Origin: Cytophagales bacterium
GTDB taxonomy: Bacteria; Bacteroidota; Bacteroidia; Cytophagales; Microscillaceae
Assembly (NCBI GenBank): GCA_031425615.1
Contig: JANPJR010000030.1
Coordinates: 274,492-330,389, forward strand
Length of the DNA: 55,898 bases
Reading direction: 5' to 3'
Made by a program: the position numbers and the translations under genes. Positions 7,097-53,936 of this stretch are shown here, in pieces; within the stretch, counting starts at the first letter, position 1, and the number at the start of each line of letters is the position of its first letter. The notes beneath the pieces were generated by a model that was not told the origin of the DNA, ran no database searches, and saw nothing but the letters and a program-made list of their open reading frames with translations.

Positions 7097-7600
7097 ATGA
7101 CAAAAAATAATACTTGGTATATAGAAATCGCAGGCATAACTTGTGCCACAATAGGATTTTTTTTGAGAATCGGACAAATTGGTGGATTTAGCGTATTTTT
7201 GATGTCGTTTGGATTTGGTATGTTGCTGGTAAACTATCTCAGCAGAGCAAGTGCAGTGTATTTACCAAAATATGATTTCTTGGCACAAGATATCGCTAAA
7301 CCTTTGGTATCTATCACATACAGTATTGTGAGTTTGGGAATTTTAGGACTTATTTTAAAGTTTAATTTTTTAAAATTAGGACAAGATGTATTAGAAATAA
7401 GCACATATTTACACCTCATCTTAGTAATTTTGTTGCTGTTTGCTATGCGTATTGCGGATTCTGCGCTACAATTTGAAAGCACAAAATCGCTTTTGATACG
7501 GTCTTTGGTGATGCTGGCGGTGGTTTATATGTTTTATCTTACTTCGCAAGAACGCTTGCAAAAGGCATTTACAGGAAAGAAAATGGAAAGTAGAAAATAG
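7097..7600 (+). CDS. hypothetical small integral membrane protein
   Basis: 167 aa, 4-5 hydrophobic helices, no recognisable motifs. Confidence 0.35.
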   Translation: MTKNNTWYIEIAGITCATIGFFLRIGQIGGFSVFLMSFGFGMLLVNYLSRASAVYLPKYDFLAQDIAKPLVSITYSIVSLGILGLILKFNFLKLGQDVLEISTYLHLILVILLLFAMRIADSALQFESTKSLLIRSLVMLAVVYMFYLTSQERLQKAFTGKKMESRK

Positions 7601-7755
7601 AAAATGATTATGGATTATAGATTATAGATTATGGATTTTATAAAAATCTTTTATTTATGGATTGCAAGGGGTTTTAATCCATTTTATGAAAAAAATTCTA
7701 TTGGGCTATAAATAGCTAAACAGATGCATTATTTTACCTTTATTTCCTAAAAAAA

Positions 7756-8567: not shown

Positions 8568-8786
8568 AAGGTTTAACATCAATTTATACACTTTTTTCAA
8601 TTACAATGTATTTATTGTTTCTCAAATATCCATAATAATCTATAACCATTCAAAAGTTTTTTGTTTGTTGGGCTGGAGCTGGACTTTATACGAATTTCTA
8701 AAAAATTTCCTAATTTTTGACAAAAAAACATTTCTCCAAAAAATGGCTTTTTTAAATTTAAAAACCGACAACTGAAAAAAACTAAA

Positions 8787-9475: not shown

Positions 9476-9500
9476 GCCCCTAACCCCCAAAGGGGTAACA
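9476..9500 (-). terminator. CCCC-AAA-GGGG hairpin element downstream of the Mur ligase gene
   Basis: gcccctaacccccaaaggggtaac followed by A/T-rich tract. The same element recurs at 45961-45980. Confidence 0.4.
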
Positions 9501-9575
9501 AAAAGACTAAAAAATGATATAAAAATGCCACCTAATCCAAAGAGGAATAAACAGTATTTATGAAAAAACTGATAA

Positions 9576-11132: not shown

Positions 11133-11537
11133 TTAAGATATTTCCTCGCAAGGTATCATTTCAAATTTGAGGGTAGAAAAAGAATGAAAATCCTCACCCA
11201 AGTCTTTCATATCCTCGTCTTCTGTTTCATAAAACCATTGCACAATGATTTCTTGCTCAGGTGTTGCAGTATTTTCAATAAGTTTAATGATTTTGCCAAT
11301 CATACCTGATGTACTGGTATTGACATAAATCAATTTGAGTGCAAGGACTACTTTTTCGGGGTGTTGTTCCTTTAAAAACTGTTCAATATGTTCCAACAAA
11401 GGATTATAAAAATCTTCTGTATCTTCAGGGATTGACACGCCTTTTATTTCAAAAATGCCATTTTCAACCTTAAAAGTTACCTCTGGTGTGGTAGGTGTTT
11501 CTTTTATAAATAAATCTTCCATAAATAAAGGGTTCAA
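11133..11537 (-). CDS. DUF1987 (SiaC-like) protein, copy 1
   Basis: About 130 aa. ...TPEVTFKVENGIFEIKGVSIPEDTEDFYNPLLEHIEQF...LIYVNTSTSGMIGKIIKLIE...IVQWFYETEDEDM is the SiaC/DUF1987 pattern. The start may be the second Met, MEDLF. Confidence 0.75.
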   Translation of the reverse strand: MNPLFMEDLFIKETPTTPEVTFKVENGIFEIKGVSIPEDTEDFYNPLLEHIEQFLKEQHPEKVVLALKLIYVNTSTSGMIGKIIKLIENTATPEQEIIVQWFYETEDEDMKDLGEDFHSFSTLKFEMIPCEEIS

Positions 11538-11627
11538 AAGTTCAAAGGTTTAATAGTTCAAGGGGTTCAAAGAGATTCAAAAGTTTAAAGAATAATACTT
11601 TTCATTGAACCTTAAACCCTTTAATCT
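11529..11627. repeat. GTTCAAAGG-type degenerate tandem array with an internal inverted half
   Basis: ggttcaaaagttcaaaggtttaatagttcaaggggttcaaagagattcaaaagtttaaag ... ttcattgaaccttaaaccctttaatctttcatt, lying between the PP2C stop and the DUF1987 start. Confidence 0.7.
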
Positions 11628-11631
11628 TTCA

Positions 11632-13662
11632 TTATGTTAGTTTAAATCCAGCAACCAAAATATCGTCCATTTGTCTATTTGTTCCCATCCAATCTATAAG
11701 TGTTTTATTTAGGATTTTTCGTTGTTCAGTCATAGGTTCTTGATGATGCTCAAAAAGCAATTCTTCAAGTCTATTTTTTGAAAATTTACGCCCTCTTTGC
11801 CCACCAAATTGGTCTTGGAAACCGTCAGAATATACATAGATAGAAAGTGGATTTTCAGGGTTATAATTGAATACATGTGAAGTAAAAACCCTTTCCCTAT
11901 CTTTCTGAAAACCTCCCACAGGCAATTTACTTGATTCTATCACTTGCATTTGTCCATCTTGTATCAATAAAAGTGGTCTGCCTGCCCCTGCAAACTCCAA
12001 TCGTTTTTTGCGTGGGTCAATAATACACAATGCAACGTCCATGCCATCTTGATTTTGGGTTTCTTGTTGGTTAAGCGCAATGCCTATGCTATTGTGCAAT
12101 TCTTCCAAAATCCAGCTTGGGTCTGTAATACCTTGTAAGTTGATAATTTGGTTTAGATAAGAATCTCCCAACATGGACATAATAGCACCAGGCACACCAT
12201 GTCCTGTACAGTCTAACGCAGCAAAAATAACTTTGCCATTTTTTTCTGAAAACCAATAAAAATCACCTGAAACAATATCTCTTGGGCGAAATAATATAAA
12301 ATTTTCGGGGAAACCCGCAGAAATTTCCAAAGCTGTAGGGAGCATTGACTCCTGAATACGTTTGGCATACGTAATACTCGCGGTAATGTCTTTATTTTTG
12401 CGTTCTATTTCTTTAAAAGTAGCTTCCAGCGTTTCATTTTTCCGATTGATTGCTTCATTTTGGATTTCAATTTTACCTTTTTGGTCTTCCAATTCTTTAT
12501 TTTTTGCTTCAATTTCTATTTTTCTTGTTTCCAAAATTTCCTTTTGTGTAGTAAGTTCTTTAGAAGTTTTTTCTATTTCTTCTTTTTGACTTTGCAAAAT
12601 TTTATTTGTTCTTTTGCTTTGTATATTGCTTCTATACAAGAAAAATACTACCACAAGCACCAACAATACAACAGCAAAAAGGAGGTAAATCCACAGTGTT
12701 TGCCTGTGTGATTCCGCTTCAGCTAATTCTCTTTTTTTGCGTTCCAATTCTGCAAGTGCATTACTTTCTTCCAATCTACCTTGTGTAGCATCTTGCAAAT
12801 CTTTATAATACGTTTCTCTAATGCCCGCATATTGTGTATAAAATTCGTAGGCTTGTTTGTAGTTGGATTGTGTAACTGCTACTTGTGCAAGTCCTTGATA
12901 AGCACGTTGCAAATCTGCATTATCGCCACTGCGTTGTGCCATATACAGTAATTGGCGAAATGAACGAGAAGATTCAGGAATATTATCTTGTTGAAAAAAA
13001 GTTTCGCCTAATCTATGTAAATTATTCGCAATAAGTTTTCTATCCAACAATGAATCTGCCATTACAAGTGCTTTTTGATGATATTGAATGGCTTTATCAA
13101 ATTCTAATTTTTTGGAAAAAACAGTCCCAAGATTTGTCAAAGTAGTTGCAATGCCCTGTTTATCTTTCACATTTTGGTAAATTGAAAGCGCTTTTTCCAA
13201 ATAATTGAGGGCTTTGTCGTTCTCGTTCAATAAGGCATAACAACTGCCTAATCGGTTGTAACTCTCTGCTATTTTTGTATTATTTTTAGTATTTTCTTTG
13301 AGTGCTAAGGCTTTGAGGTAAAATTCTACTGCTTTCGTATAATCCCCTTGTATTTGATAAATATTACCTATTTTGTCTGCACTTGCAATAATACCTTGTA
13401 CATATTTTATTTTTTCGGAAATATGTAAGGCTTCTTCTGCGTATTTTCGGATTTTAGCTGGGCTTTCTTTTGTATTTTGGTATTCATCATACAAATTATT
13501 CAAAATTCGCACCCTTGTAGTGTCATTACGCGTCATTTTGAGCGTACTTTCAAGTTTTTCTATACGTGGATTAGGTTGTGCATAGCTTTTTGGGATAATA
13601 TTAAAGCATATTACCGCCATCAAAAAACCCAAAAAGCATCTTTTTTTATTCATAAGGGACAC
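11632..13662 (-). CDS. PP2C/SpoIIE-family Ser/Thr phosphatase with periplasmic TPR sensor, single TM helix and coiled-coil (SiaA-like)
   Basis: Signal peptide, about 280 aa of TPR repeats, TM LWIYLLFAVVLLVLVVVFFLY, heptad coiled-coil, then SpoIIE/PP2C core ...FRPRDIVSGDFYWFSEK...ALDCTGHGVPGAIMSML...YVYSDGFQDQFGG. Confidence 0.85.
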   Translation of the reverse strand: MSLMNKKRCFLGFLMAVICFNIIPKSYAQPNPRIEKLESTLKMTRNDTTRVRILNNLYDEYQNTKESPAKIRKYAEEALHISEKIKYVQGIIASADKIGNIYQIQGDYTKAVEFYLKALALKENTKNNTKIAESYNRLGSCYALLNENDKALNYLEKALSIYQNVKDKQGIATTLTNLGTVFSKKLEFDKAIQYHQKALVMADSLLDRKLIANNLHRLGETFFQQDNIPESSRSFRQLLYMAQRSGDNADLQRAYQGLAQVAVTQSNYKQAYEFYTQYAGIRETYYKDLQDATQGRLEESNALAELERKKRELAEAESHRQTLWIYLLFAVVLLVLVVVFFLYRSNIQSKRTNKILQSQKEEIEKTSKELTTQKEILETRKIEIEAKNKELEDQKGKIEIQNEAINRKNETLEATFKEIERKNKDITASITYAKRIQESMLPTALEISAGFPENFILFRPRDIVSGDFYWFSEKNGKVIFAALDCTGHGVPGAIMSMLGDSYLNQIINLQGITDPSWILEELHNSIGIALNQQETQNQDGMDVALCIIDPRKKRLEFAGAGRPLLLIQDGQMQVIESSKLPVGGFQKDRERVFTSHVFNYNPENPLSIYVYSDGFQDQFGGQRGRKFSKNRLEELLFEHHQEPMTEQRKILNKTLIDWMGTNRQMDDILVAGFKLT

Positions 13663-13785
13663 AGAAAAGCTTATTAGTCTATAAACATTAGCCTATAAAA
13701 TTATTTGTTGTTTTTAGTTGTTAATTATTTATTTAAAAAAAATAAAAACCTGACAACTAAAAAACTAACAATTGATACCTAAAAT

Positions 13786-14892: not shown

Positions 14893-15462
14893 ATAATTTT
14901 GCTAAAAAGTTGCTTCAAAGATAAGTAAAAACAATGAAATACAAATACGTTAATTGATATTTTTAATTTTACACGCTTAATTTTATACTTATTTCGTGTT
15001 TATTTTATTTGTAAAGCGTGTTTTATGGATTATGTTTTATAATTTTTGGTATTTTAAAACCTTAAAAATGGTAATAAGTGCAATAAAGTAAATTTTTGGC
15101 TAAAAATAAATATTTTTTTTTATTTTAAAAAACATCAAAACAAAAAAAATGTAAAAAAGAATGTAAAAGATGCTATTTTTTGTGAAAATATTTGTTTTTT
15201 TTGTTAGTTTTCAAGCTATTACACTGCTAAATCTAATAAACCACAAAAAAAAACGCCTGACAAAATCAAGCGTCTTTTTAACCTATTTATTTATTTTTTG
15301 CATGTTCTTTTTTTCTATCTATCTTTTTTTCTACTCGTCTTTTTTTTATCTATCTATGTTTATCTTTTCTGTCTTGCATGTTTAGTGTGTTGTTTAGGAC
15401 AACAAGCCATCAAATAACATTTTTTTACCTTTTACCCAATCAAAATAAATTGATTTTAGATT

Positions 15463-15834: not shown

Positions 15835-16256
15835 TATTTAATGTATTTTTTGTAGTATTTTGTAGTATTTTTATGAAAAATTATTTTTTTACTATTTTAT
15901 AAATAATAAAAAATATCCTTAAATCAAATGTAAAACCATTTTTAAAAATTAAATCTACAAAAACATAAGATAATAACTTATTGTACTTTTTTATTTATTT
16001 TTCAACTAATTTATAAAATAATACGCTTTTTTTTGATGACGACTGTTTTGGTAAAACATGAAAACGTGTAAATAATTGCATTTTTTTTGTGAAAAATATA
16101 AAAAAAGCAATTATTTAGCCTCCTAAAAACCAAAAGGGGAATAAATACTTTTTTTTTGTATTTATACCCCCTTTGACGTAAAAAAACACTATTTAGTTGC
16201 GTAAAATCTGTAAAATACGCCATTTTAACATTTTTTTACATTTTTCAAAAAAACGC

Positions 16257-17798
16257 TTAGTCTTTCCATTTAAGCGTAAATAAATCTGTTCTTCTGTCTT
16301 TCAGATTTCTTACGCTTCCTTGCGTGTGAAGTTCTTTGAGCAAATCCAAATCCACATCAGCCACCAAAATCATTTCTGAATTTGGGGTTGCTTCTGCCAC
16401 AACTGCATTGGTTGGGAAAGCAAAATCAGAAGGCGAAAATACCGCAGATTGGGCATATTGAATGTCCATATTAACCACTTTGGGCAAATTGCCCACACTG
16501 CCTGCGATTGCTACATAACACTCGTTTTCCACAGCTCTTGCCTCAGCACATTTGCGTATGCGTTGGTAGCCATTATTAGAATCAGTAGAAAATGGCACAA
16601 ATAAAATTTGCATACCTTCATCAGCCAACAGGCGTGAAAGTTCAGGAAATTCAACATCATAACACACCAAAACCCCAATTTTACATACATCAGTATCAAA
16701 AATTTTTACTTTGCTTCCTCCCACAATGCCCCAATCATCTACTTCGCTTGGTGTAATGTGTATTTTGTATTGTACTTCATACGTACCGTTACGCCTGCAC
16801 AGATACGACACGTTGTAAAGTTGGTTATTTTCGTATAAAGGAACGCTTCCTGCAATGATATTAATGTTGTAACTCACTGCAAATTCTATAAATTTCTCCA
16901 AAATATCTTCGGTATATTGTGCCAATTTACGAATTGCAACAGGCGCACCATCTTGGTTAAATTTTGCCATGAGAGGCACATTAAACAACTCTGGAAATAA
17001 AATAAAATCCGCATTATAATTGGCAATCGCATTGACATAAAACTCTACATTTTCAAAAAAAGCCTCAATAGAAGGTGCAGTACGCATTTGCCACTGCACA
17101 AGCCCAATCCTTGCAAAAGTTTTGGAACTGCCTATTTTACGTTCTTTTGGGTTGTAATAAATATTGTTCCATTCCAAAAGTGTTGCAAATTTTTTGGATT
17201 CTTTATCACCTTCCAAATAATCTGTAAGTATTTTGATTACACGCAAATCATTACTCAGTTGAAAAGTCAAAACAGGGTCATATATTTCTCTAAGTCTTAC
17301 TTTTTCAATATATTCTTTTGGTTTGAGGGTGCGACTATGTTTTGAATAATTAGGCATACGACCTCCTGCCACGATAGACCTAAGATTGAGATGTTCGCAA
17401 AGTTCTTTGCGAGCATCATACAAACGCCTTCCTATGCGCATACCTCTGTATTCGGGGTCTACACAAATATCTACGCCATATAATACATCACCTTTTGGTG
17501 TGTGTGTGGTAAATTCTTCGTTGCCAGTGGCTTGTGCGTAAGTATGCACATCACCAAGTTTTGGATAATCCACAATAATAGATAATACAAAACCTGCTAT
17601 TTTGCCTCTATCCGATATGCAGATTTGTCCATCAGGAAATATTTGCAACAATTTTTCAAATTGTGCCTGTGTCCAAGCACCGCCTATACCATCACCATAT
17701 ACGTTTTCCATGATGCGCGCAAGTTCCGTATAATCGGAGCTTTGCATAGTGCGTATTTCTAATTCGTGTTCAGTTTCTTGTGCCATAGAAAGGGTCAA
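16257..17798 (-). CDS. bifunctional GNAT N-acetyltransferase / carbon-nitrogen hydrolase (nitrilase superfamily) protein
   Basis: N-terminal GNAT (...GFVLSIIVDY...RGMRIGRRLYDARKE) and C-terminal CN-hydrolase (IGLVQWQM...ILFPELFN...KIGVLVCYDVEFPE...YVAIAGSVG). Confidence 0.85.
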   Translation of the reverse strand: MTLSMAQETEHELEIRTMQSSDYTELARIMENVYGDGIGGAWTQAQFEKLLQIFPDGQICISDRGKIAGFVLSIIVDYPKLGDVHTYAQATGNEEFTTHTPKGDVLYGVDICVDPEYRGMRIGRRLYDARKELCEHLNLRSIVAGGRMPNYSKHSRTLKPKEYIEKVRLREIYDPVLTFQLSNDLRVIKILTDYLEGDKESKKFATLLEWNNIYYNPKERKIGSSKTFARIGLVQWQMRTAPSIEAFFENVEFYVNAIANYNADFILFPELFNVPLMAKFNQDGAPVAIRKLAQYTEDILEKFIEFAVSYNINIIAGSVPLYENNQLYNVSYLCRRNGTYEVQYKIHITPSEVDDWGIVGGSKVKIFDTDVCKIGVLVCYDVEFPELSRLLADEGMQILFVPFSTDSNNGYQRIRKCAEARAVENECYVAIAGSVGNLPKVVNMDIQYAQSAVFSPSDFAFPTNAVVAEATPNSEMILVADVDLDLLKELHTQGSVRNLKDRRTDLFTLKWKD

Positions 17799-17856
17799 AG
17801 TTCAAAAGGGCTTAAAGTTTAAAAGGTTCAAAGTTCAAAAGGTTCAAAGTTTATAA
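17791..17856. repeat. GTTCAAAGG-type tandem array
   Basis: agggtcaaagttcaaaagggcttaaagtttaaaaggttcaaagttcaaaaggttcaaagttt, immediately followed by the aaaaactgacaactgaaaaagc motif. Confidence 0.7.
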
Positions 17857-17893
17857 AAACTGACAACTGAAAAAGCTAATGACTTGTACTAAA

Positions 17894-22696: not shown

Positions 22697-22885
22697 TCCA
22701 AGTTGTATGTTTTCAGTTTTTAAGTTGTTGGTTTTATAGATTTGCTCAAATTTATATTTTTGGACATAAAAAATTGTAAAATATTTTTTTGATTTTTAGG
22801 TGTTGATTTTTAGATAAGCAAAAAAAATGTTTCATTTTTTTGAGAAATGAAACGTTTTTTTTACTTTTAAGGGCTTAGAAAGTTT

Positions 22886-24538
22886 TTACAATTCTTCCGA
22901 AGGTTTTTCCAATTTACCTTCACCTTCTTTCAAAAATTTCTCAAAATCTTCTTCTGAGTTACCACTTTCTTTTTCCATTTCTTTACGTTTTTTACGTTTT
23001 TCTTCTGCTTCTTTTTCTGCTTTTTTGTTTGCCTCTTGTGTTTTTAGGTAGAGGTCATATAGGGCTGGAATAGCGTTGGTTTTGGCATCTTGGAAAGCAA
23101 GCGAAACTTGTGCTTTTATCAAATCTTTGTCTTTTTGTACACCATTTACCGTAAGGGCAAGACCTTTTAGGCTTTTTTCTATAGGCTCAAATGCCCCAGA
23201 TATTTCTTTTGTATTTTTGAGGAGTTGCACAAGGTCAAAATACAATACCATATTTTGGTTTTGGGTTATGCTTGTGATGAGGTTATTTTTGCCAAGTTCT
23301 CCTTTTTCTGCTTTTATTTTTTCCAAAAGTTGTTTGCCATTGATGACATGCAACATATCTTTTTCTATATAGACATAGCTTTCTTCGCTTCCTGTACCTC
23401 TGCCTTGATAGGTATTATCTGCTATTTTTTTGAAAGTTTCGCTTGTACGTTCATTACGCATCATATCATCAAATATTTTACGGTCTTTGATTTTGATGGT
23501 TGTACTAAAAGTTGGTATTTTTCCAGAGAAAATTTTTGAAAAATCTATATTTTCCAACGCAAAAGCTAAATCGCCTGTTACATTTTGTAATACACTAAAA
23601 AGTTCTGTACCTGTATCTTTTTTGAAATTGCGTGCTTCTTTTTCAAAATCTTTGTCTTTTTTGAGTTCTGCAATAATGCCTTCCATATTAAGTGCAGTGC
23701 TTAAAAACACTTTTGGATTTGCAACAGGGTTGTCGTTCAATACACTTTTATCAAGGTTTGTGCGGATGAGGCGGGCATATTTTTCTGATTTCCCTTTCAT
23801 AAAATAGGTAAAAATTTCCATGTTGATAGCACCACTTTCAAAATTGAGGGCAAAATTTGCCCCTATGATGTCGTCTTTTGCTTGATTTTTTACATTATTA
23901 GGCAAAAAATACATAGAAAGTGCGTCAGTTGCATTTTGTGTATTTATCCAAAATTGTATATCGTGTGTATTTTTTTGTGTTTCGGTAAATATAGGATTTT
24001 TTGCCCCAAAACTTTCGCTGACAGAGATTGCACTCCAAGCATTTACATTTTTGAGCAATTCATTTTCACTTTTATCGCCTATTGCTCCCCAAAGGATATT
24101 ATTTTTCCAAGCAAGCAAAAGCGGTTTTTTGTAAATATAGCTTAGGTTTTCTGCTTTTTTTGGTGCAATTTTAAATGCTTTTTGGGCACTTTCCGCCCAT
24201 TTTTTTTCGTCTTTGAGCAAAATGTGCATACCTAAAAAGGCATTTTCAGGCTTTTTGGCATCTGCATTTGTGTAGAAATACATGCGTTGTGTGTCGTCAA
24301 AACTACCATCAAGCAACAAAGGCAGTACTTCTGCAAAACTTTCTGATTCAGGAAAATTTTCTAAGAATTTTTTGTCCTTCAAAATTTTTATCATATCAGT
24401 TGATTTTCCCAAGATTTTTTTCAAATCAACTGTGATAACTGCATTGGCTGTGTTTGGGATTTGGGGCATTTTTCTGCCACCGCAAGACACTAATAAACCC
24501 AAGAAGAGGGCAAAAAGTGAGACTTTGGATAAATTCAT
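22886..24538 (-). CDS. hypothetical lipoprotein (DUF4836-like), C-terminal K/E-rich tail
   Basis: Likely start at the Met of MNLSKVSLFALFLGLLVSCGG (lipobox). The ORF-track start at 24586 runs into the tandem repeat array. About 550 aa, no enzymatic motifs. Confidence 0.55.
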   Translation of the reverse strand: MNLSKVSLFALFLGLLVSCGGRKMPQIPNTANAVITVDLKKILGKSTDMIKILKDKKFLENFPESESFAEVLPLLLDGSFDDTQRMYFYTNADAKKPENAFLGMHILLKDEKKWAESAQKAFKIAPKKAENLSYIYKKPLLLAWKNNILWGAIGDKSENELLKNVNAWSAISVSESFGAKNPIFTETQKNTHDIQFWINTQNATDALSMYFLPNNVKNQAKDDIIGANFALNFESGAINMEIFTYFMKGKSEKYARLIRTNLDKSVLNDNPVANPKVFLSTALNMEGIIAELKKDKDFEKEARNFKKDTGTELFSVLQNVTGDLAFALENIDFSKIFSGKIPTFSTTIKIKDRKIFDDMMRNERTSETFKKIADNTYQGRGTGSEESYVYIEKDMLHVINGKQLLEKIKAEKGELGKNNLITSITQNQNMVLYFDLVQLLKNTKEISGAFEPIEKSLKGLALTVNGVQKDKDLIKAQVSLAFQDAKTNAIPALYDLYLKTQEANKKAEKEAEEKRKKRKEMEKESGNSEEDFEKFLKEGEGKLEKPSEEL

Positions 24539-24680
24539 GTTCAAAAGTTTAAGGGTTTTAAAAGGTTTAATGTTCAAAAGATTCAAGGTTCAAAGGGTTC
24601 AAGGTTCAAAAGGTTTAAGGTTCAAAGGTTTTAAGGTTTAAGGGTTCAAGGTTCAAAAGGTTTAAGGGACAAAGTTTTTA
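24538..24680. repeat. largest GTTCAAAGG / GGTTTAAGG tandem array (about 14 units, roughly 9-10 bp period)
   Basis: ...ggttcaaagggttcaaggttcaaaaggtttaaggttcaaaggttttaaggtttaagggttcaaggttcaaaaggtttaagg..., seen directly in the sequence. Confidence 0.8.
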
Positions 24681-24769
24681 AAAAATTAAAAAAGGTTTAG
24701 ACGCATATTTTTTCTTTATTGTTTTAGACCTAATTTATTGAATCTTAAACTTTGAATTTCAAACTTTTT

Positions 24770-25774
24770 TTAATCTTCATCATCAACTTCATAGCCTATA
24801 AAATTCATATCAATTTTTGCACTTTCGCTAAGGTCTTGTGCTTCTTTGACAATATCAGTATCATCTTCGGGATAAAACCAATTTACTTCTACTTTTCCAC
24901 CACGTATTTCATACGCTTTTAGGCTACGAAGTGTGTCTAAAATGGCTTTGTAAGAGCTTGTATTAAAATAGGTAAGGCGAAAATTGAATGTAATTTTATT
25001 GTTGGATTCTTTGGTATATTTGTCAATCCAGCTAATAATTTTGGAGTAAAACTCGTTGGTGTATTCCAAATAGGATTCACCAGCCAGCTCACATACCCCT
25101 GTATCACCATTGAGCATTACATAAGGGGTATAAAATTCGCCTTTGTTACTTTTGATGTGTAATGTTTCCATTTGTTGCGTAGATTTTTTTTGGGTGGAAT
25201 TTTTTGAAACAGTAATTAAAAGGGTATAATATGTATATAAGTCATTTATAGGTTGCAAATCTACATGAATAGGATTTTCGGACACAAGGGTAGCTTTGAT
25301 AAGTCCTACGCCTGCTCCTTTGCTATCAGGGTTGTTTGGATTGTCATTTTCTACAATTTCCATGCGGTATTTTCTAAGCCCGTCAGTATCAAGCGTTTGG
25401 ATTTTTTTTGCTTGTTTATCAATAAATTCAGCTTGTTTGTGGGTGATGAGATTACCAGTAAAAAGGTGATAACTTGTTTCCCCTTCCGAAAGCACAATCG
25501 TACCAACAGGTGTAGCTTCGCCAAATTGGTTAATTTCTGCGGAATAATAAAAAATATTTTGGGCTAATTCCAAAAAAATATTGTGTAATTTTCTGCCTGC
25601 ACTTCTATTATTTACTTTATGAACGATTTCGTTGTCCATTTCTGCAATAATTTTGGTGGTGATAGAACCTCTGTAAGACAATATGACGTTTTCGTTGGGT
25701 AAATCCGCATAATATGCCAATGTACCAAGCTGTTCGAGCATATCTAATTTCATAATTGAGACAGTTTTTTCCAT
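24770..25774 (-). CDS. fusion protein: SiaB-like kinase-like domain (N) plus DUF1987/SiaC-like domain (C)
   Basis: Residues 1-190 (...NIFLELAQNIFYYSAE...SKGAGVGLIKATL) align with the 14323-14892 product. After the linker KNSTQKKSTQQMETL, residues about 205-334 (EFYTPYVMLNGDTGVCELAGESYLEYTNEFYSKIISWIDKY...ITFNFRLTYFNTSSYKAILDTL...VEVNWFYPEDDTD) align with the two DUF1987 proteins. Single continuous ORF. Confidence 0.75.
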   Translation of the reverse strand: MEKTVSIMKLDMLEQLGTLAYYADLPNENVILSYRGSITTKIIAEMDNEIVHKVNNRSAGRKLHNIFLELAQNIFYYSAEINQFGEATPVGTIVLSEGETSYHLFTGNLITHKQAEFIDKQAKKIQTLDTDGLRKYRMEIVENDNPNNPDSKGAGVGLIKATLVSENPIHVDLQPINDLYTYYTLLITVSKNSTQKKSTQQMETLHIKSNKGEFYTPYVMLNGDTGVCELAGESYLEYTNEFYSKIISWIDKYTKESNNKITFNFRLTYFNTSSYKAILDTLRSLKAYEIRGGKVEVNWFYPEDDTDIVKEAQDLSESAKIDMNFIGYEVDDED

Positions 25775-26093: not shown

Positions 26094-26308
26094 AAAGAAT
26101 TAGAAATTAAGAATTATTGTTGAGCTTAATTTAAAAATACATTTTAGATAATGATTTATGTGTTTTAAATATTTAATGTAAGTTTTTTCAAGCATTATTT
26201 TCAAGTATCATTCTAAAATTTGAAAAAATTTAAGATTATAAACCTTTTTTTTAAAATTATTCACAATTCCTATCCTAATTCCTAATTCCCAATTAAATTT
26301 GTTCCTAA

Positions 26309-26338
26309 TTAAAATCCCCCTTTGGAATTTAGGGGCTT
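26309..26338 (-). terminator. hairpin terminator element
   Basis: aaatcccccctttggaatttaggggctttt immediately 3' of the membrane-protein stop. Confidence 0.35.
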
Positions 26339-29170: not shown

Positions 29171-29472
29171 TTAAAAGCCAAAAATGCAGTTTTTTTTTCT
29201 AAAATAAAAGCAAAGAAAGAGATTATTTTTTTAAATTTTTTTTTTAAATTTTTGTTATCTTTGCGAGATAGTTGTTTTTTGGCTAAAAAGCCCATTAACC
29301 CCAAAAGGAAACAAACTATAAATCCCCTAAATGTTGGCTTCCAAACCCACATTTCTGTACGATACAAGAACTTGCCCCAAACACATAAGTACGGGCTTGA
29401 AACTCGCACCATGACCTAAAACAAACTAAAAAACCACCAACTTAAAACTGACAACTTAAAAACCTTACAACA

Positions 29473-30154: not shown

Positions 30155-30200
30155 CAACATACCCCCAAAACCCAAAGGGGGAGCAGTCCCAAGTGGGAAT
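30155..30200 (+). terminator. CCCC-AAA-GGGG hairpin terminator
   Basis: acccccaaaacccaaagggggagcagtcccaagtgggaat, 3' of pabA. Confidence 0.4.
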
Positions 30201-30228: not shown

Positions 30229-30340
30229 AAAAAAACTCAATTAACTGAAAAAACTGACAACTAAAAAAACTGAATTGACTGAAAAAACTGACAACTGAAA
30301 AGACTAAATTAACTGAAAAAACTAAATTAACTTAAAAAAT
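30229..30340 (+). repeat. tandem array of the AACTGACAACTGAAAAA / AACTAAATTAACTGAAAAA dispersed motif
   Basis: Five or more units directly 5' of the 30342 start codon. An inverted partner array lies at 32950-33016. Confidence 0.8.
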
Positions 30341-30341
30341 C

Positions 30342-32954
30342 ATGTCCAATCAAACCGCTACAAAAACCTTTAAAATACGTCCTATTCATACCAAAATTAT
30401 ATTTTGGGTGTTTTTTACTGCACTTTTGGCAATGATTGGGATTGCGATAAGCATATACAAATGGATATACAATCCTTTGGAACTCACTTTTTTGGGTTGG
30501 GTACTGATAAGTGGGGGTATTGTTTTTCTGCAATTTGGTTTATGGTTTTCGTTTTTACGTGTGGTTGTAGCACCTTTACAAAATCTTGCACAAACTGCAA
30601 AATCAATATCAGAAGGCGACATTTCTATAAATGTAGAAATTAATGCTTTTGATGAAATAGGAAGTATTGCCCATTCCACAAATTCTATTGCACAAAGCAT
30701 CAAACAAGCGAGAGAATTTACAAATAGCATAGGCGAAGGGAATTTTGAGGTTTCAATTTTACAAACTAACCAAAAAAATACAGAAAAAGATGGGCTGTTT
30801 ATTTCATTAATGAAAATGCGAAACCAGCTTAAAAAAGTAGCAGATGAAGATGGAAAACGTAATTGGATTGCCAAAGGTATGGCAGAATTTACCAAAATAT
30901 TACAGTCCAACGATATTAGTATTCAAGAATTGGGTAAAGCTGTAATTGTTGAACTTATCAATTATTTGAAAGCCTCACAAGGGGCAATATTCATGTTGAA
31001 TAATTTTCAAGAAGACAATCCATATTTAGAACTTGTGGCAACTTATGCATACAATAAATTGTCATTTGAAGAAAAAAAAATTATCCTAAAAGAAAATTTT
31101 GCTGATGGTCTTGTGGGACAGGCTTTTTTGGAAAATAATATCATCAACCTTTCTAATATTCCGCCCAATTACCCTTACATTTCTTCAGGTTTGGGTGAAA
31201 CACAACCAAAAAATATCCTTATTGTACCACTTCAACTCAATGGTAAAACGGAGGGCGTAGTAGAAATTGCATCTTTTAGTACGTTCCAACCACACGAAAT
31301 AGAATTTATTGAGCGTATTTCGCAAAATATTGCCTCTGCAATACTTACCATTAAAACAAATGACAACACCAAAAAATTATTATATGAATCTCAAACGCTT
31401 GCCACAAAACTACAAGCACAAGAAAATGAACTAAAAGAAAGTTTATTAGAATTGCAAAGTAGTCAAATGGAAATAGAAAAGAAAAACCAAGAAATAGAAG
31501 CCCAAAAACGCAAAACCGAAGAAGCACTTGAAGAACAAACCGAAAAAAGCGAAATGCTTGAAGCACAAGAAGAAGAAATGCGTCAAAATATGGACGAATT
31601 GCTTACCATACAAGAACAAATGCGTATTACGCAGCTTGAACTTGATGGTCAGCTCAATGCAATCAATTCAAGTGCCATTTGCAAAGTAGAATATTCATTG
31701 GAAGGCAAAATCATAAAAGCAAATGAAAGTTATTGCAAACTTGTAAAATGTGATGAAGATGAAGTAAAAAATCTCCCACATAGCACATTTGTTGATAATA
31801 GATTTGCAAAAACAGACGCATATAAAATGTTTTGGGAAAATCTTAAAAATGGTATTCCACAAACAGGTGATTATCAATATGTGGATTGGGAAGGTGAAGA
31901 GTTTTGGATAAATGCGGTGTATTCGCCTATGTTGGATAACAAAGGCAAACCTCAAAAAATTATTCAACTCGCTTTTGACATTACAGAAGCAAAAAATCTC
32001 CTCCAAGAAATTCAAATGCAAACTTCTGTACTCAAAATGCAAGAAACGGAACTAAAAGACCGTATGAAACAACTCACAAACGCACAAGCAGAAATCAATG
32101 CCAAAAATCAAGCAATTATTGAACTCAAGGAAGAAGAAACCCGCAATGCACAACAACGTACCAGAGAAACTGAAAGCAAAAACCAACTTATCACATCAAG
32201 CATCAATTACGCCCAAAGTATTCAAAAAGCCATATTACCCAATGAAGACAAAATAAAGCAATATGTACAAGATTTTTTCGTGATTTTTATGCCAAAAGAT
32301 ATTGTTTCAGGTGATTTTTATTGGTTTTTGCATGTAGAACAACTCAATATTTCGTTTTTTGCTACTGTTGATTGCACAGGACATGGTGTGCCAGGTGCTT
32401 TTATGTCTATTATTGGTAATACTATTCTTAATGAAATCGTCAATGGACAAAAAATATATGAACCACACAAAATCCTTGAACTCTTACATATTGGCATAAG
32501 AACACGCCTAAGACAAGGCGAAACCACCAACCAAGATGGTATGGATATCGTACTCTGTAAAATAGCCCCAACAGCAACAGAAGAGGTAATCGTAACTTTT
32601 GCAGGAGCAAAAAGACCAATTTTTGTGTACGAAAATACATTACACGAAATACAAGAACATAAAGGCGACCGCAAATCTATTGGTGGATTTCAAGGAGAAG
32701 ATTATAGAGCTTTTTCGCAACAAGAATTTACCCTCAAAAAAGGAAATATCTTGTACCTCACAAGTGATGGCATAATGGATAATCCTAACCAACAACGTAA
32801 AAAATTTGGTGTACAAAAATTTAAAGATATTGCCCTCCAAAATATCAATAAAACCCTAAAACAACAATGTATTCTGCTTATCAACGAAATCATTTCACAC
32901 CAAGACGGAGCAGACCAACGTGATGATATTACAGTTATGGGGATAAGGTTGTAA
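30342..32954 (+). CDS. membrane sensor PP2C/SpoIIE phosphatase: 2 TM, HAMP, GAF, PAS, coiled-coils, PP2C (second SiaA-like protein)
   Basis: 870 aa. The TM pair flanks a short loop. HAMP-like ...VVVAPLQNLAQTAKSISEGDISINVEI.... GAF ...SQGAIFMLNNFQ...GVVEIASFS. PAS ...AICKVEYSLEGKII...WINAVYSPMLDNKG. C-terminal PP2C KDIVSGDFYWFLHV...VDCTGHGVPGAFMSIIG...YLTSDGIMD. Confidence 0.85.
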   Translation: MSNQTATKTFKIRPIHTKIIFWVFFTALLAMIGIAISIYKWIYNPLELTFLGWVLISGGIVFLQFGLWFSFLRVVVAPLQNLAQTAKSISEGDISINVEINAFDEIGSIAHSTNSIAQSIKQAREFTNSIGEGNFEVSILQTNQKNTEKDGLFISLMKMRNQLKKVADEDGKRNWIAKGMAEFTKILQSNDISIQELGKAVIVELINYLKASQGAIFMLNNFQEDNPYLELVATYAYNKLSFEEKKIILKENFADGLVGQAFLENNIINLSNIPPNYPYISSGLGETQPKNILIVPLQLNGKTEGVVEIASFSTFQPHEIEFIERISQNIASAILTIKTNDNTKKLLYESQTLATKLQAQENELKESLLELQSSQMEIEKKNQEIEAQKRKTEEALEEQTEKSEMLEAQEEEMRQNMDELLTIQEQMRITQLELDGQLNAINSSAICKVEYSLEGKIIKANESYCKLVKCDEDEVKNLPHSTFVDNRFAKTDAYKMFWENLKNGIPQTGDYQYVDWEGEEFWINAVYSPMLDNKGKPQKIIQLAFDITEAKNLLQEIQMQTSVLKMQETELKDRMKQLTNAQAEINAKNQAIIELKEEETRNAQQRTRETESKNQLITSSINYAQSIQKAILPNEDKIKQYVQDFFVIFMPKDIVSGDFYWFLHVEQLNISFFATVDCTGHGVPGAFMSIIGNTILNEIVNGQKIYEPHKILELLHIGIRTRLRQGETTNQDGMDIVLCKIAPTATEEVIVTFAGAKRPIFVYENTLHEIQEHKGDRKSIGGFQGEDYRAFSQQEFTLKKGNILYLTSDGIMDNPNQQRKKFGVQKFKDIALQNINKTLKQQCILLINEIISHQDGADQRDDITVMGIRL

Positions 32955-33016
32955 TTTTTTTCAGTTGTCAGTTTTTTCAGTTAATTTAGTTTTTTCAGTT
33001 GTTATTTTTTTAGTTA
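32950..33016 (-). repeat. inverted copy of the AACTGACAACTGAAAAA array
   Basis: ttttttcagttgtcagttttttcagttaatttagttttttcagttgtt is the reverse complement of the 30229-30340 units. Confidence 0.8.
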
Positions 33017-33070
33017 AAGGTATTTTATTTCCTTGGGGCTTGCTCTCCCTTTGAGGGTTGGGAGTTTCCT

Positions 33071-33367: not shown

Positions 33368-33695
33368 AAAAATAATATCAGTTATCAGTTTTTGAGTTGT
33401 CAATTTAAAAATATTTTTTCAAAAATAAATGATTTTCTACACTTTATTCCTAAAATTATCGCTAAAAATTCAATTTCAATTTTAATAAAATTATTTTTTT
33501 GGATTTGTTCCCTTTGAAGGTTAGAGACTTAATCACTACAAAAAAAATTATTTTTCATTTCCTTTTAACCAAAAAAAACGTTTATATTTGTAGTTATTTT
33601 TTTATCTTGAAAATGAAAAATAATTGTTTTTATTTTTAACAAAATTTTAAAAAATAAACAAATTAAATTTTTAGACTTTTAAAACGCATCAAAAA

Positions 33696-39565: not shown

Positions 39566-39638
39566 AAGCCACCTACCCCCCAAAGTGGAGCAAACAGCCT
39601 TTATCTTAATTTGATATATAAATTTAATGCGTATTAAT

Positions 39639-42301: not shown

Positions 42302-43030
42302 ATGGCAATATTATTTAATGTAGATGGCAGTATTGCCAGCATAGATGACGATACGCCTGACAAGGCTATTATTGGCAAACAAGAAGTACCTTTTATTTCG
42401 GGAGCCCAACTTCGCAGTTATGCTGCAACTGTGTATTCTGAATCTTCGCACAATGGTATTTTACAGTTTGTAGCACCAAACGACCCTGCAAGAGAAATGC
42501 AAAGGGAAACTTTTGCCATTGCTTATAGCATGTATAGTTACGCATTAGCCAAAAGTGCAGCATTCAAAAAAGCAAAAAGAAGCTACGGACTTGCAGATTT
42601 GCTTGTAGACAGCAATTACACAAAAGGTATCAACAGCCCACAACACCAAGAATATTTTGGCACAGGAGGCGATGAAACACGCAGAAGACAAGCAACACTC
42701 GCAGTCATCAAATTATTTACTAAACAAACAACTGACGTAAGTGATATTATCCAAACACTGCAAGGAGGCGGATATTGGGACGGTAGCGATATTTTTCGCA
42801 AATTCCCTGACCATTATCGTTGTAGGCAAGGTTTTGAACTAAGCAACGCAATACATGGCGATTTGTATAAAAATGTTCCAAAAGTGAATAAAACCATACA
42901 ATCTTGCCCAGCAACTGATGCAAAAGTATCTGCACAACGTCAATTTACATTTTTATCTACCATGACCGCAGGCGGAACAATATTTTTCAAACTTCACCCA
43001 AACGCACTTGCACAAGGCGTAACGTGGTAA
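42302..43030 (+). CDS. hypothetical protein (no signal peptide, no motifs)
   Basis: 242-aa ORF whose DNA looks more G+C-rich than its surroundings. Confidence 0.4.
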   Translation: MAILFNVDGSIASIDDDTPDKAIIGKQEVPFISGAQLRSYAATVYSESSHNGILQFVAPNDPAREMQRETFAIAYSMYSYALAKSAAFKKAKRSYGLADLLVDSNYTKGINSPQHQEYFGTGGDETRRRQATLAVIKLFTKQTTDVSDIIQTLQGGGYWDGSDIFRKFPDHYRCRQGFELSNAIHGDLYKNVPKVNKTIQSCPATDAKVSAQRQFTFLSTMTAGGTIFFKLHPNALAQGVTW

Positions 43031-43036
43031 AAAGCT

Positions 43037-43090
43037 TAACCTTTGAACTTTGAACTTTAACCCTTGAACTTTGAACTTTTTAAACCTATA
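43037..43090. repeat. GTTCAAAGG-family tandem array (TTGAACTTT orientation)
   Basis: cctttgaactttgaactttaacccttgaactttgaacttttt. Confidence 0.7.
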
Positions 43091-43095
43091 AAAAC

Positions 43096-43446
43096 ATGGG
43101 AACAATAACCTTAGAAGGTTTGGAATTTTTTGCATATCATGGTTTTTTTAAAGAAGAACGCAAAATTGGCAATAAATTTAGTGTGGATTTGACGATTGAA
43201 GTTGATTTTTCGGAAGCTGCACAACACGACAAACTCTCTGCTACGATTGATTATGGAAAATTGTACGAAATCGTGGAAAAAATCATGCAAAAACCCGCCA
43301 AACTTTTGGAACATTTGGCACAAAATATTGTCCTGACGGTTAAAACACAATATCCACAAATAAAAAGCGTGGAAGTAAGCGTAGCAAAACATAATCCGCC
43401 TGTTGGTGGTGTGTGCAAATGGGCAAAAATTAGATTGAAAGGATAG
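43096..43446 (+). CDS. folB: dihydroneopterin aldolase
   Basis: MGTITLEGLEFFAYHGFFKEERKIGNKFSVDL...IDYGKLYEIV... is the FolB signature; 116 aa. Confidence 0.85.
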   Translation: MGTITLEGLEFFAYHGFFKEERKIGNKFSVDLTIEVDFSEAAQHDKLSATIDYGKLYEIVEKIMQKPAKLLEHLAQNIVLTVKTQYPQIKSVEVSVAKHNPPVGGVCKWAKIRLKG

Positions 43447-45960: not shown

Positions 45961-46050
45961 GCCCCCTAACCCCCAAAGGGTGAATTAAAATTAAATTTAC
46001 ACATAAAATTATACATCAAAGGCTATTTACTCCCCTTTGGGCTGGGGGCT
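45961..46050 (+). terminator. long stem-loop terminator element (gccccctaacccccaaaggg ... cccctttgggctgggggc)
   Basis: Two GC-rich arms that are reverse complements of each other flank about 50 bp of AT-rich DNA, 3' of mutS2. The left arm equals the 9476-9500 element. Confidence 0.45.
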
Positions 46051-46836: not shown

Positions 46837-47056
46837 GTTTTTCAGTATCCAGTTTTTTCAGTTTAAAATAAAGGATTTTATGTAGTATTTTTCGCTTTTT
46901 TTGTCATTGCATAGGAATCTGGCTCTCTTTTATTTTATCCTTTTTATTTTCAAAAATAAAATTACAGTTTATTGTAAATGCTTGTTATTTTTCGTTTTAA
47001 TTGAATACAAATGTAAGGAAACACGCTAAAAACTTCTTGCAAAAAATAGTATAATT

Positions 47057-53087: not shown

Positions 53088-53152
53088 TTTTAAAATCCTT
53101 AAACTTTTTCAATCTTTAAACCTTTTGCACCCCTTTGAACTTTTAAACTTTT
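53088..53152. repeat. GTTCAAAGG-family tandem array (reverse orientation)
   Basis: ccttaaactttttcaatctttaaaccttttgcacccctttgaacttttaaactttt. Confidence 0.6.
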
Positions 53153-53153
53153 C

Positions 53154-53603
53154 TCAATAACTCAAATTCACCTTACAATAATGTGTATTTTTGGTAATTT
53201 CAAAGGCACTTTTAGCAAAACTTGGGGCACTCATCGTGCCACGTGCATCATTAGAAAAACCATAACCTTCAGTAGGAATACCTAAGAAATTTTTGTCTAA
53301 TTTTGTGTTATTATTTTCGTCGTGAAACAATGCGAAGGCATATTTACCCAAAGGTAAATTTTCAAAAGAAACTTCTGTTTTGCCTTTTTGGACAGCAAAA
53401 ATTTTCTTTTTTATGGCAAGATTTTCCTTCAAAAAACCTTTTTCTTTGTCATACAAAGCCACAAATAATTTTCCTTTATTTGATTTACAATTTTCTACGC
53501 TGATAGTCAATGTTGCAAAAGTCTGCGTTTTATGTGTAGAATTTTCAGCATTTTGTTTTGGAAATAAACCAAAAAAGAACGAAAAAAATAGAAAATAGGA
53601 CAT
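53154..53603 (-). CDS. DUF2141-like secreted protein
   Basis: ...LFHDENNNTKLDKNFLGIPTEGYGFSND... resembles the DUF2141 signature; N-terminal signal. Confidence 0.6.
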   Translation of the reverse strand: MSYFLFFSFFFGLFPKQNAENSTHKTQTFATLTISVENCKSNKGKLFVALYDKEKGFLKENLAIKKKIFAVQKGKTEVSFENLPLGKYAFALFHDENNNTKLDKNFLGIPTEGYGFSNDARGTMSAPSFAKSAFEITKNTHYCKVNLSY

Positions 53604-53627: not shown

Positions 53628-53668
53628 AGGTTTTTAATCTTTGAACTTTTGAACTTTAAACCCTTTTT
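53628..53668. repeat. GTTCAAAGG-family short array
   Basis: aatctttgaacttttgaactttaaaccc. Confidence 0.55.
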
Positions 53669-53936
53669 AAGCGCTAATTTTGTCTTTTATGCACTTTAAT
53701 AATTCATTAGGGCATTTTTTAGAAATTTTTTCTTTGAGTTTTTCTCTAAGCGTTTTATCCACTTCATAGCAATCCCAGCAATGCGTACAGGTTTCCAAGT
53801 GTAGTTTTACATAAGCTTTATCTTCTTCTGATGCTTCTTTATCAAGCACAAGTTCCAATGTTTCCAAACAATGTTGGCACTCTTTACAAAGTTCTTTTTG
53901 GGAAGAATTTTCTGTATTTGTTTTGTATGTTTCCAT
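53667..53936 (-). CDS. zf-HC2 (ZAS-type) putative anti-sigma factor
   Basis: 89 aa with C-x2-C-x2-C ... HLETCTHC (the H-x3-C-x2-C ZAS motif). Confidence 0.45.
   Translation of the reverse strand: METYKTNTENSSQKELCKECQHCLETLELVLDKEASEEDKAYVKLHLETCTHCWDCYEVDKTLREKLKEKISKKCPNELLKCIKDKISA

Follow-up and report, generated by a model that had tools for sequence, protein, structure and literature searches.

We describe a family of short tandem repeats that recurs at six intergenic loci of a 55,898-nucleotide stretch of DNA (the window throughout) from a bacterium of the order Cytophagales (assembly GCA_031425615.1, contig JANPJR010000030.1, positions 274,492 to 330,389). The arrays, built from a degenerate GTTYAARG unit, are tandem, intergenic, length-variable and constrained in orientation, and we put at roughly 0.85 the probability that they are slippage-prone short tandem repeats, a family particular to this genome that belongs to an already described class, the long simple sequence repeats (LSSR) of 5-11 bp found between genes, also called heptamer repeats. 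As a working reading, parts of which are directly observed, we lean towards regarding them as spacers or leaders that are transcribed, filtered by orientation and able to tune expression through their length. The data can be accounted for without a regulatory role specific to any one locus.

Results

A repeat family confined to intergenic DNA

A preliminary description of the window had listed six arrays at these loci, and both direct reading of the sequence and Tandem Repeats Finder (TRF) bear out GTTYAA-type tandem arrays at all six. On one strand the unit consists of GTTYAA followed by one to three purines, giving a degenerate GTTYAARG of 7-9 bp; the opposite strand reads TTRAAC with pyrimidines ahead of it. 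We designate GGTTYAA as the G-form and TTRAACC as the C-form; the corresponding unit strings are (GGTTCAAAG)n and (CTTTGAACC)n, with (CUUUGAACC)n and (GGUUCAAAG)n as RNA. The window has six clusters of at least three GTTYAA/TTRAAC hexamers within 14 bp; 200 dinucleotide-preserving shuffles averaged 0.02 such clusters and never had more than 1. TRF calls the arrays at 11531-11589, 17789-17853, 24539-24681, 43036-43079, 53094-53152 and 53640-57, with periods of 7-9 and 16 and with 4-16 units each; for 24539-24681 it reports a 16-bp consensus, GTTCAAAAGGTTTAAG, present in 8.1 copies (score 149), and a 47-bp period (score 181).

All six arrays lie in non-coding DNA, which makes up 17% of the window (33% GC), and none lies within a gene. 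Simple arithmetic places the chance of such an outcome at about 0.17^6 = 2e-5, and the strictly intergenic placement first described thus stands. Successive units are spaced by 7, 8 and 9 bp in 9, 7 and 7 cases, respectively (mean 7.9), and the largest array holds about 16 units, so that the 4-14 units of 8-10 bp originally given need correcting at the upper end of the count and in the spacing. Because the units are contiguous and carry no spacers, these are not clustered regularly interspaced short palindromic repeats (CRISPR), which have repeats of ~21-48 bp and unique spacers, as had been recognized. They do display the features of the LSSR class, namely a tandem unit of 5-11 bp, a length beyond chance and, at the locus of a relative with 93% identity, polymorphism by whole units.

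The period had at first been likened to a helical turn and taken to suggest curved DNA. The units hold A-tracts of 2-4 bases, but autocorrelation is best at lags 8 and 16 (for array 4, at 7 and 21) with a minimum at 10-11, and AA steps have a Fourier power of 4.0 at 8 bp that falls to ~0.01-0.1 at 10-11 bp. With a period of 7.9/16 bp and no 10-11-bp signal, curvature from in-phase A-tracts is not predicted.

Outside the arrays GTTCAA is not avoided, ranking 80 of 102 composition-matched hexamer classes; an apparent depletion of GTTYAA there (92 vs 160 in dinucleotide shuffles) was discarded as an artefact of the null model. A mobile element of the miniature inverted-repeat transposable element or repetitive extragenic palindromic (REP) type was also rejected, since the flanks of the six loci have no conserved body or termini in common: blastn of the 200-bp flanks, with the arrays removed, returned chance matches only (10-26 nt, E >= 0.012). 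Rfam and tRNA scans gave no matches.

The arrays and the genes that adjoin them are as follows.

11133..11522 (-), SiaC-family gene; the main arm of array 1 stops ~8 nt before its ATG
11529..11589 (+), array 1, main arm; ~7 GTTYAARG units, reading as the C-form (CTTTGAAC) in the sense direction of the SiaC-family gene
11605..11627 (-), array 1, short inverted arm; 2-3 units, G-form on the sense (-) strand
11632..13662 (-), TPR-SpoIIE phosphatase gene; the inverted arm of array 1 begins within ~10 nt of its stop
16257..17786 (-), GNAT/CN-hydrolase gene; array 2 stops ~3-5 nt before its ATG at 17786
17789..17856 (+), array 2; ~8 units, C-form on the sense strand
17857-17885, array of a second family (family B, AACTGA-type), filling the rest of the array 2 spacer after the stop of the DUF996 gene
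22886..24538 (-), lipoprotein gene; its ATG at 24538 directly adjoins array 3
24539..24681 (+), array 3, C-form in the sense direction; the largest array, its ~16 units having a super-period of 16 bp
24738..24767 (-), inverted mini-array of array 3; G-form in the sense direction, 3-4 units
24770..25774 (-), DUF6272-SiaC gene; the inverted arm of array 3 begins ~5 nt after its stop
43036..43090 (-), array 4; ~6 units, C-form on the + (sense) strand, with a period of 7 and a super-period of 21; takes up the 65-bp spacer that separates the stop of ORF 42302..43030 (+) from the folB ATG
43096..43446 (+), folB, downstream of array 4
start at 52976, TPR gene; array 5 lies ~110 nt upstream of this start
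53088..53152 (-), array 5; ~6 degenerate units, G-form on the sense (-) strand
53154..53603 (-), DUF2141 gene; its stop lies within ~6 nt of array 5
53628..53666 (-), array 6; ~4 units, G-form on the sense (-) strand
53667..53936 (-), zf-HC2 gene, 90 aa; its stop (53667-53669) stands directly before array 6

Every array lies between co-directional genes (6/6). Given as upstream gene, array and downstream gene, the order is TPR-SpoIIE phosphatase, 1, SiaC-family protein; DUF996, 2, GNAT/CN-hydrolase; DUF6272-SiaC, 3, lipoprotein; open reading frame (ORF) 42302-43030, 4, FolB; zf-HC2 small protein, 6, DUF2141; and DUF2141, 5, TPR protein. The functions of these genes show no common theme, and the nearest named homologues of the window proteins are from Cytophagales (Bernardetiaceae, Microscillaceae, Cyclobacteriaceae, Fulvivirga). 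The zf-HC2 ORF (90 aa, an anti-sigma-type zinc finger) was absent from the initial ORF list and scores 22.4 bits in Pfam against a cutoff of 22.2; array 6, which follows it, lies ~25-37 nt upstream of the DUF2141 start at 53603. The largest array had been thought to overrun the start of the lipoprotein gene, an artefact of ORF extension that holds only from the first possible codon, TTG 24586. Starting from ATG 24538, the product begins with MNLSKVSLFALFLGLLVSC, which reads as a lipoprotein signal peptide with a lipobox, and the 16 codons further upstream are the repeat of array 3 read in frame.

Orientation follows the nearest gene boundary

Arrays 1-4 end within ~16 nt of the downstream ATG and, read in sense, all show the C-form; the G-form is seen in arrays 5 and 6 and in the two mini-arrays formed by the inverted arms, which start within ~10 nt of the upstream stop. 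All eight arms (8/8) therefore obey a single rule set by the nearest gene boundary. The earlier statement that several arrays abut start codons is thus right for arrays 1-4, with arrays 5 and 6 adjoining stops instead, and the presence of both orientations in one spacer, reported for array 1 (11605-11627), extends to array 3 (24738-24767).

We scanned metagenomes with one pattern, its spacing chosen to exclude 9+9-nt coding repeats; the figures that follow are among the matches listed, and loci are given by L numbers. Arrays of the GTTYAA unit were found in at least 120 metagenome stretches on contigs of 26-69% GC, a count that does not imply that this unit is commoner than others. The unit thus spans contigs of very different composition yet is lacking in relatives of 85% and 80% protein identity, which makes its distribution sporadic and not clade-limited and contradicts the initial impression of a lineage-specific element. 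Many of these contigs also carry neighbouring arrays of other heptamers. The specific pattern gave 4 matches on viral contigs, and at L238, L281 and L301 some matches are eukaryotic (TTTAGGG)n telomere-like repeats, false positives for a census of the unit. A looser GTTYAA pattern with 9-nt spacing was discarded, since its viral loci (L086-L165) were mostly 27-nt-periodic coding repeats on giant-virus contigs; these GGT-TCA-AAA repeats read as collagen-like GSK coding repeats and would likewise be false positives.

Genes in the metagenome contigs were called with our own ORF heuristic, giving 179 non-redundant arrays. Most of them (164/179) do not overlap a called ORF; the other 15 come without exception from contigs of at least 49% GC, for which ORF calling is unreliable. 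The spacers are co-directional in 88 cases, convergent in 15 and divergent in 12, a split close to what we estimate for bacterial genomes generally, which argues against a promoter- or terminator-specific function. Orientation is anything but even: where the nearest gene boundary lies within 40 bp, the ratio of G-form to C-form is 30:14 for boundaries on the left and 9:39 for those on the right (Fisher p = 2e-6), and in contigs below 46% GC it is 14:3 and 2:16 (p = 3e-5). In sense terms, these low-GC contigs have the G-form after stops (18:2) and the C-form before starts (12:3). The ORFs tested beside after-stop arrays were all genuine Pfam genes on the called strand (10/10, including SufB, RibBA, GAPDH and aldehyde dehydrogenase). 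When two arrays of opposite orientation lie within 200 bp of each other, the usual order is G-form to C-form (G→C), with 19 cases against 3 from C-form to G-form; the G→C pairs form hairpins of 25-40 bp with energies of -18 to -47 kcal/mol (z = -4 to -8) and without a U-tract. Examples among L206-L325 are L234:164-217, L243:9556-9643, L254:398-478 and L312:1333-1396, and such pairs often start at the stops of housekeeping genes.

The polarity extends beyond this unit. Among arrays of other units with TRF periods of 7, 8, 10 and 11 (L206-L325 and the window), the strand read into the gene has C above G in 48 cases vs 17, and 29:7 show the same polarity after stops, many units having no G or C at all; in the small unbiased subset L001-L085 this polarity is not evident. 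An alternative formulation, that the strand read into the gene carries stop codons, is true of families A (the GTTYAARG arrays) and B and fails for other units (18:40). Since other-unit arrays, and also the TTCAAAA repeats of Nostoc discussed below, keep C above G, we take G/C skew on the transcribed strand, and not the motif, as the governing variable, which argues against a single sequence-specific binder and favours constraints on the transcribed strand, for instance a need for G-poor initiation regions where Shine-Dalgarno pairing is little used. Neither the rule itself, with the G-form after stops and the C-form before starts, nor the G→C bias of inverted pairs has apparently been described in the literature searched.

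Whole-unit length change and rapid turnover

The closest homologue of the CN-hydrolase, at 93% identity, occurs in two Joint Genome Institute metagenomes (L084, L085) and has a GGTTTAAAAGTTTAAG array upstream, which follows a different neighbour (coaE), lies ~80 nt from the start and has the opposite orientation to array 2 of the window. Between the two metagenomes all 226 aligned flanking columns are identical (226/226), and the sole difference is a 45-bp indel inside the array, which has 11 units in one and 7 in the other. This is direct evidence for gain or loss of whole units at the locus of the 93% relative, and copy number does vary between close relatives.

The position of the array is not conserved between the window and this relative, and 10-17 kb of sequence from relatives at 85% and 80% protein identity held none of these arrays. 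Since the more distant relatives lack arrays, and since neighbours, position and orientation already differ at 93%, turnover is fast and the distribution sporadic. A scan of genome contigs with a conserved peptide yielded, among the matches listed, only relatives of at most 65% identity; a 90% orthologue of the SiaC-fusion gene (L326) is on a contig that stops 68 nt past the stop codon, short of the array 3 spacer.

The stop codon of the upstream gene often lies inside the first repeat unit (L084:636-640, L240, L242, L296, L302, and 24770 and 53667 in the window), as GGTT-TAA-GG or AGT-TAA-AG followed by AGTTCAAG; inspection by eye placed it there in ~10 of 23 after-stop cases. Either the arrays were seeded by duplication of the stop context or the ORFs now end at the TAA of the unit. 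The indel between L084 and L085 also shifts the position of the coaE stop.

Spacers, leaders and RNA structure

No sigma-70-like or terminator-like site was detected in the six array spacers, and the Bacteroidota -33/-7 promoter, including the -7 box TAnnTTTG, is absent from them. Both kinds of signal occur elsewhere in the window: there are canonical terminators (e.g. 51191-51232), and TAnnTTTG is present 17-34 nt upstream of seven other genes. As the genes are co-directional and the spacers between them have no recognisable promoter or terminator, the arrays are likely to be transcribed inside polycistronic mRNA. Intrinsic (Rho-independent) terminators were considered and rejected on the same lack of terminator-like sites, the array RNAs being predicted to be weakly structured or unstructured. 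A panhandle joining the 5' and 3' ends of an mRNA was likewise dismissed, for no window gene is preceded by a C-form array and also followed by a G-form one.

Compared with shuffled sequences, the array 1 spacer folds at -23.1 kcal/mol (z = -1.9), 199 of 200 shuffles are more structured than the array 2 spacer (z = +2.3), and the array 3 and array 4 spacers have z = -0.6 and z = -0.55. In arrays 1 and 3 the second, inverted arm comprises 2-4 units and is 76-81% complementary to the first; in the predicted fold of array 1 the paired region extends between the phosphatase stop and the SiaC start, where the 3' arm takes in positions ~-22 to -4. A cruciform at 11529-11627, suggested at first, is not favoured by arms of 16-25 nt that are 76-81% complementary, AT-rich and 23-43 nt apart, or by the marginal RNA fold (z = -1.9).

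Leaders in the window at large, taken as the 40 nt before starts with arrays excluded, contain 6.7% G and 15.6% C (skew -0.40), and the sequence after stop codons has no G/C skew. Initiation regions (-40..+20, 60 nt) of all window genes fold weakly, with a median of -2.1 kcal/mol, and those of the array-preceded genes (n=4), at -0.7 to -3.5 kcal/mol, are ordinary for the window. Such G-depleted, weakly folding leaders are consistent with initiation that makes little use of Shine-Dalgarno pairing.

Other repeats in and around the window

Arrays of family B, with units such as CTGACAACTG, AAAAAACTG and TTAACTGA, are related to the published TAACTGA heptamers, and in 11/11 cases they stand as the TCAGTT form directly after stops and as the AACTGA form directly before starts. 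Also scattered through intergenic DNA is a third element, a small hairpin made of a C-run and a G-run (consensus ~GCCNCCTAACCCCCAAAGGGG), with 8 matches vs 0.29 expected; several copies lie directly after stops (e.g. 39566, 45960), and it may be REP-like or terminator-like. Their positions are listed here.

8777-8786, 9560-9575, 13736-13785, 17857-17885, 22697-22740, 29424-29472, family B arrays
30230-30341, 32948-33015, 46837-46862, 49570-49600, 54305-54346, family B arrays, continued
9480-9495, 26317-26332, 30165-30180, 33046-33061, 33509-33524, 39573-39588, 45966-45981, 55757-55772, third element

The spacer 17787-17893 consists wholly of family B followed by family A. Two family B arrays, 30230-30339 and 32948-33015, are inverted relative to each other and bracket the gene 30342-32954, encoding a HAMP-GAF-PAS-SpoIIE phosphatase, an arrangement that could simply reflect the before-start/after-stop rule or could mark an invertible or recombining segment. 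This gene belongs to a set of partner-switching type in the window (11133-13662, 24770-25774, 30342-32954), comprising two SpoIIE/PP2C phosphatases, whose sensor domains are TPR or HAMP-GAF-PAS, and two SiaC-family genes, one of which is a fusion with DUF6272; 3/4 of these genes are flanked by family A or family B arrays.

TRF also finds AAGAATT and AATTCCT arrays (26095-26116 and 26265-26294), an inverted pair ~150 bp apart, and further small arrays at 7578-7637, 15843-15872 and 15294-15355 (AGAAAAT plus GATTATR, TTTTGTAGTA, TCTTTTTTTCTATCTA). AATTCCT-type arrays also lie beside a GGTTYAA array in L289. Unrelated Bacteroidota (L013:3729-3962, L056:973-1208, L039:7086-7241, L075:19520-19621) have different 7-8-bp arrays side by side or inverted heptamer pairs, such as TAGTGCT with CTAAGCA and GAATTAC with GTAATTC, and in L013 the arrays are directly downstream of the same CN-hydrolase gene.

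Discussion

Relation to known repeats

To our knowledge, intergenic repeats of the heptamer type, among them the short tandemly repeated repetitive (STRR) sequences, LSSR and TAACTGA repeats, have been known for more than 30 years without an accepted function. The STRR sequences of heterocystous cyanobacteria (STRR1-3) have strict heptanucleotide units, from which the window arrays depart in having units of 7-9 bp, a different sequence and Cytophagales homologues around them. In pathogens, repeat tracts between promoter and start are exemplified by the 7-bp repeats of Haemophilus hmw. Accounts of Moraxella describe a poly-G tract at uspA1 and AGAT tracts at uspA2 whose unit number, near the promoter or in the 5' untranslated region, changes by slippage and tunes expression. 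Such pathogen tracts are single contingency loci at surface-protein genes, whereas the window unit is dispersed at many housekeeping genes and also occurs after stops. REP palindromes and bacterial interspersed mosaic elements are, like the window arrays, dispersed, repeated and intergenic, and REPs also lie after stops and form hairpins; the window arrays differ from them in having no fixed-length palindromic unit and no conserved flanks, and in being mostly single-orientation and unstructured.

The closest described parallel is the TAACTGA heptamer of Beggiatoaceae, cyanobacteria and five Bacteroidetes, including the Cytophagales member Flexibacter (now Bernardetia) litoralis DSM 6794 (MacGregor 2015, PMC4679880). 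Like the window arrays, TAACTGA repeats are intergenic, mostly a few nt before starts in one orientation and occasionally reversed after a stop; they are also predicted to be unstructured, are sporadic across phyla, show whole-unit indels between strains and flank genes without a common function (PMC4679880). The window arrays differ in their GTTYAARG unit, degenerate at 7-9 bp, and in their 16-bp super-period, TAACTGA-like units being confined to family B, whose CTGACAACTGAAAAAACTAATTAACTG contains the TAACTGA heptamer with the same geometry. Neither the G-form-after-stop/C-form-before-start rule nor the G→C bias is reported in that paper (PMC4679880).

Contiguous heptamers are also described from Nostoc PCC 7120, where TTCAAAA/TTTTGAA lies upstream of recF and ~20 other genes and GAC(C/T)AAT upstream of recO, deletion of the latter heptamer changing reporter output 1.3-2.9-fold (bioRxiv 10.1101/2022.06.06.494920). 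TTCAAAA has nearly the core of the window unit and occurs as 3-4 repeats within 100 nt of starts or -10 boxes. The Nostoc units are, however, strict 7-mers from a cyanobacterium, and their sense strand reads TTCAAAA before starts, the opposite core orientation to that of the window (CTTTTGAAC); in either orientation, nonetheless, the strand that leads into the gene has more C than G. A full-text search for GGTTCAA, TTGAACC, TTCAAAA and TTTTGAA returned the Nostoc preprint only.

The LSSR5-11 class, in which heptamers are commonest and slippage is invoked (Mrazek et al. 2007, as summarised in PMC4679880 and PMC11868660), resembles the window arrays in its tandem 5-11-bp units, beyond-chance length, mostly intergenic location, occurrence in non-pathogens and sporadic distribution. 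It is a statistical class without an assigned mechanism, and these summaries of it include neither the GTTYAARG unit nor an orientation rule.

A working model and the evidence that weighs against it

Under the reading that we favour, replication slippage or unequal recombination would give rise to the arrays and would add or remove whole units. An array beside a start codon would be tolerated only if its orientation left the leader poor in G and free of structure, and the complementary G-form would be the orientation tolerated, or favoured, after a stop. The six window arrays are most likely transcribed as intercistronic (polycistronic) RNA. The four that adjoin starts would supply a G-poor, weakly structured leader, like the other Shine-Dalgarno-poor initiation regions of the genome, and the two arms of arrays 1 and 3 may pair across the spacer. 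With a different number of units the leader would differ in length and in pairing, and expression of the downstream gene could be tuned in this way.

Several points weigh against this model. Transcription of the arrays and an effect on translation are what we infer from the sequence. A constraint on leaders does not account for the G-form being preferred after stops, the background there being without skew. Only 4/6 window arrays adjoin starts, and the leaders that these provide are as structured as leaders elsewhere in the window, so that there is no sign of a special leader benefit. The orientation rule is not significant in contigs of at least 56% GC (p = 0.46) and depends on gene calls from our own heuristic, and the L084 and L085 contigs are short-read metagenome assemblies, which can mis-assemble repeats. 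Finally, independent random slippage would not be expected to bring up one unit at six loci in 56 kb, so that the unit must either have spread from locus to locus or have been selected, for instance by a binder; a binding protein, recombinational spread or seeding from stop contexts are all possible sources of this recurrence.

Alternative explanations

The recurrence of one unit at six loci in 56 kb, where other possible units do not recur, suggests that the motif is favoured and speaks for arrays as reiterated binding sites of a DNA- or single-stranded RNA-binding protein (of S1, Csp or KH type), in which unit number would set occupancy across a dispersed regulon. MacGregor argued along the same lines for TAACTGA as opposed to its single-base variants, with S1, Csp and CsrA-like binders proposed (PMC4679880), the Nostoc authors postulate an unidentified binder (bioRxiv 10.1101/2022.06.06.494920), and an identical unit recurs in very different genomes. 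We nevertheless regard this as unlikely. The flanking genes (SiaC, GNAT/CN-hydrolase, lipoprotein, folB, DUF2141, TPR) have no common theme, the hexamer is not avoided outside the arrays, an 8-bp spacing puts successive sites on different faces of duplex DNA, and array positions are not conserved at 93% identity. Orientation, moreover, tracks G/C skew and not the core, Nostoc having TTCAAAA in sense where the window has TTTTGAA(C) before starts, and no candidate protein has been identified.

The 19 to 3 excess of G→C pairs in other genomes, and the stability of their hairpins (-18 to -47 kcal/mol, z = -4 to -8), raise the prospect that arrays are the arms of long G→C palindromes, acting as RNA hairpins (in translational coupling, RNase III processing or REP-like stabilisation) or as DNA cruciforms, with lone arrays as half-decayed remnants. 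Arrays 1 and 3 do have both arms, running from just past the upstream stop to just before the downstream start, and the array 1 spacer (z = -1.9) places its 3' arm over ~-22 to -4 of the SiaC start. Against this, the second arm in the window is short (2-4 units) and 76-81% complementary, shuffles fold about as well as the array 3 spacer (z = -0.6), arrays 2, 4, 5 and 6 are partnerless, and array 2 is significantly unstructured (z = +2.3). As no U-tract follows them, the hairpins are not canonical intrinsic terminators. We judge this explanation quite unlikely for the window.

More speculatively, and with rather little confidence on our part, arrays could be polarity-coded gene-boundary elements found across phyla, directional insulators with the G-poor (C>G), structure-free strand always transcribed into the gene and the G-containing strand out of it. 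If so, 5' arrays would serve as ribosome- or S1-loading pads for Shine-Dalgarno-independent initiation, and the antisense of 3' arrays would offer a C>G tract of the Rho-loading type that halts antisense or read-through transcription into the gene. After-stop arrays might then be seeded by tandem duplication of the stop context, and slippage would tune both functions.

That arrays are neutral by-products of slippage, accumulating wherever selection permits, is a proposition that overlaps largely with the slippage reading preferred here and differs from it only on whether unit number affects expression. It accords with rapid turnover, sporadic occurrence among relatives, a spacer context (88:15:12) near the expected background, flanking genes without a theme and ordinary array-preceded leaders. 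Strict neutrality is improbable in our view, since the strong orientation rule, holding even after stops where the background has no skew, implies selection or a directional mechanism, and the recurrence of one unit within a genome needs explaining.

Curved DNA or promoter architecture resembling UP elements, or phase-variation loci that alter promoter spacing, can point to 2-4-base A-tracts, to arrays upstream of genes, to varying copy number and to heptamer or tetramer repeats of pathogens, such as those of Moraxella uspA2, that tune expression between promoter and start, but we consider them very improbable given a 7.9/16-bp period without a 10-11-bp signal, spacers without sigma-70-like or Bacteroidota -33/-7 promoters, similar arrays in convergent spacers and directly after stops, and genes that are housekeeping and not surface or contingency loci. 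As a phase-variable locus would, the family varies in unit number (in the 93% relative); there are no promoter elements beside the arrays, and the genes are housekeeping or regulatory.

Conclusions

The arrays mislead the prediction of ORF starts, as they did at the lipoprotein gene, and they are likely to break short-read assemblies; they could also serve as markers for strain typing. The window adds a GTTYAARG unit family to a known class of repeats, and an orientation tied to the nearest gene end may narrow the search for the function of that class.

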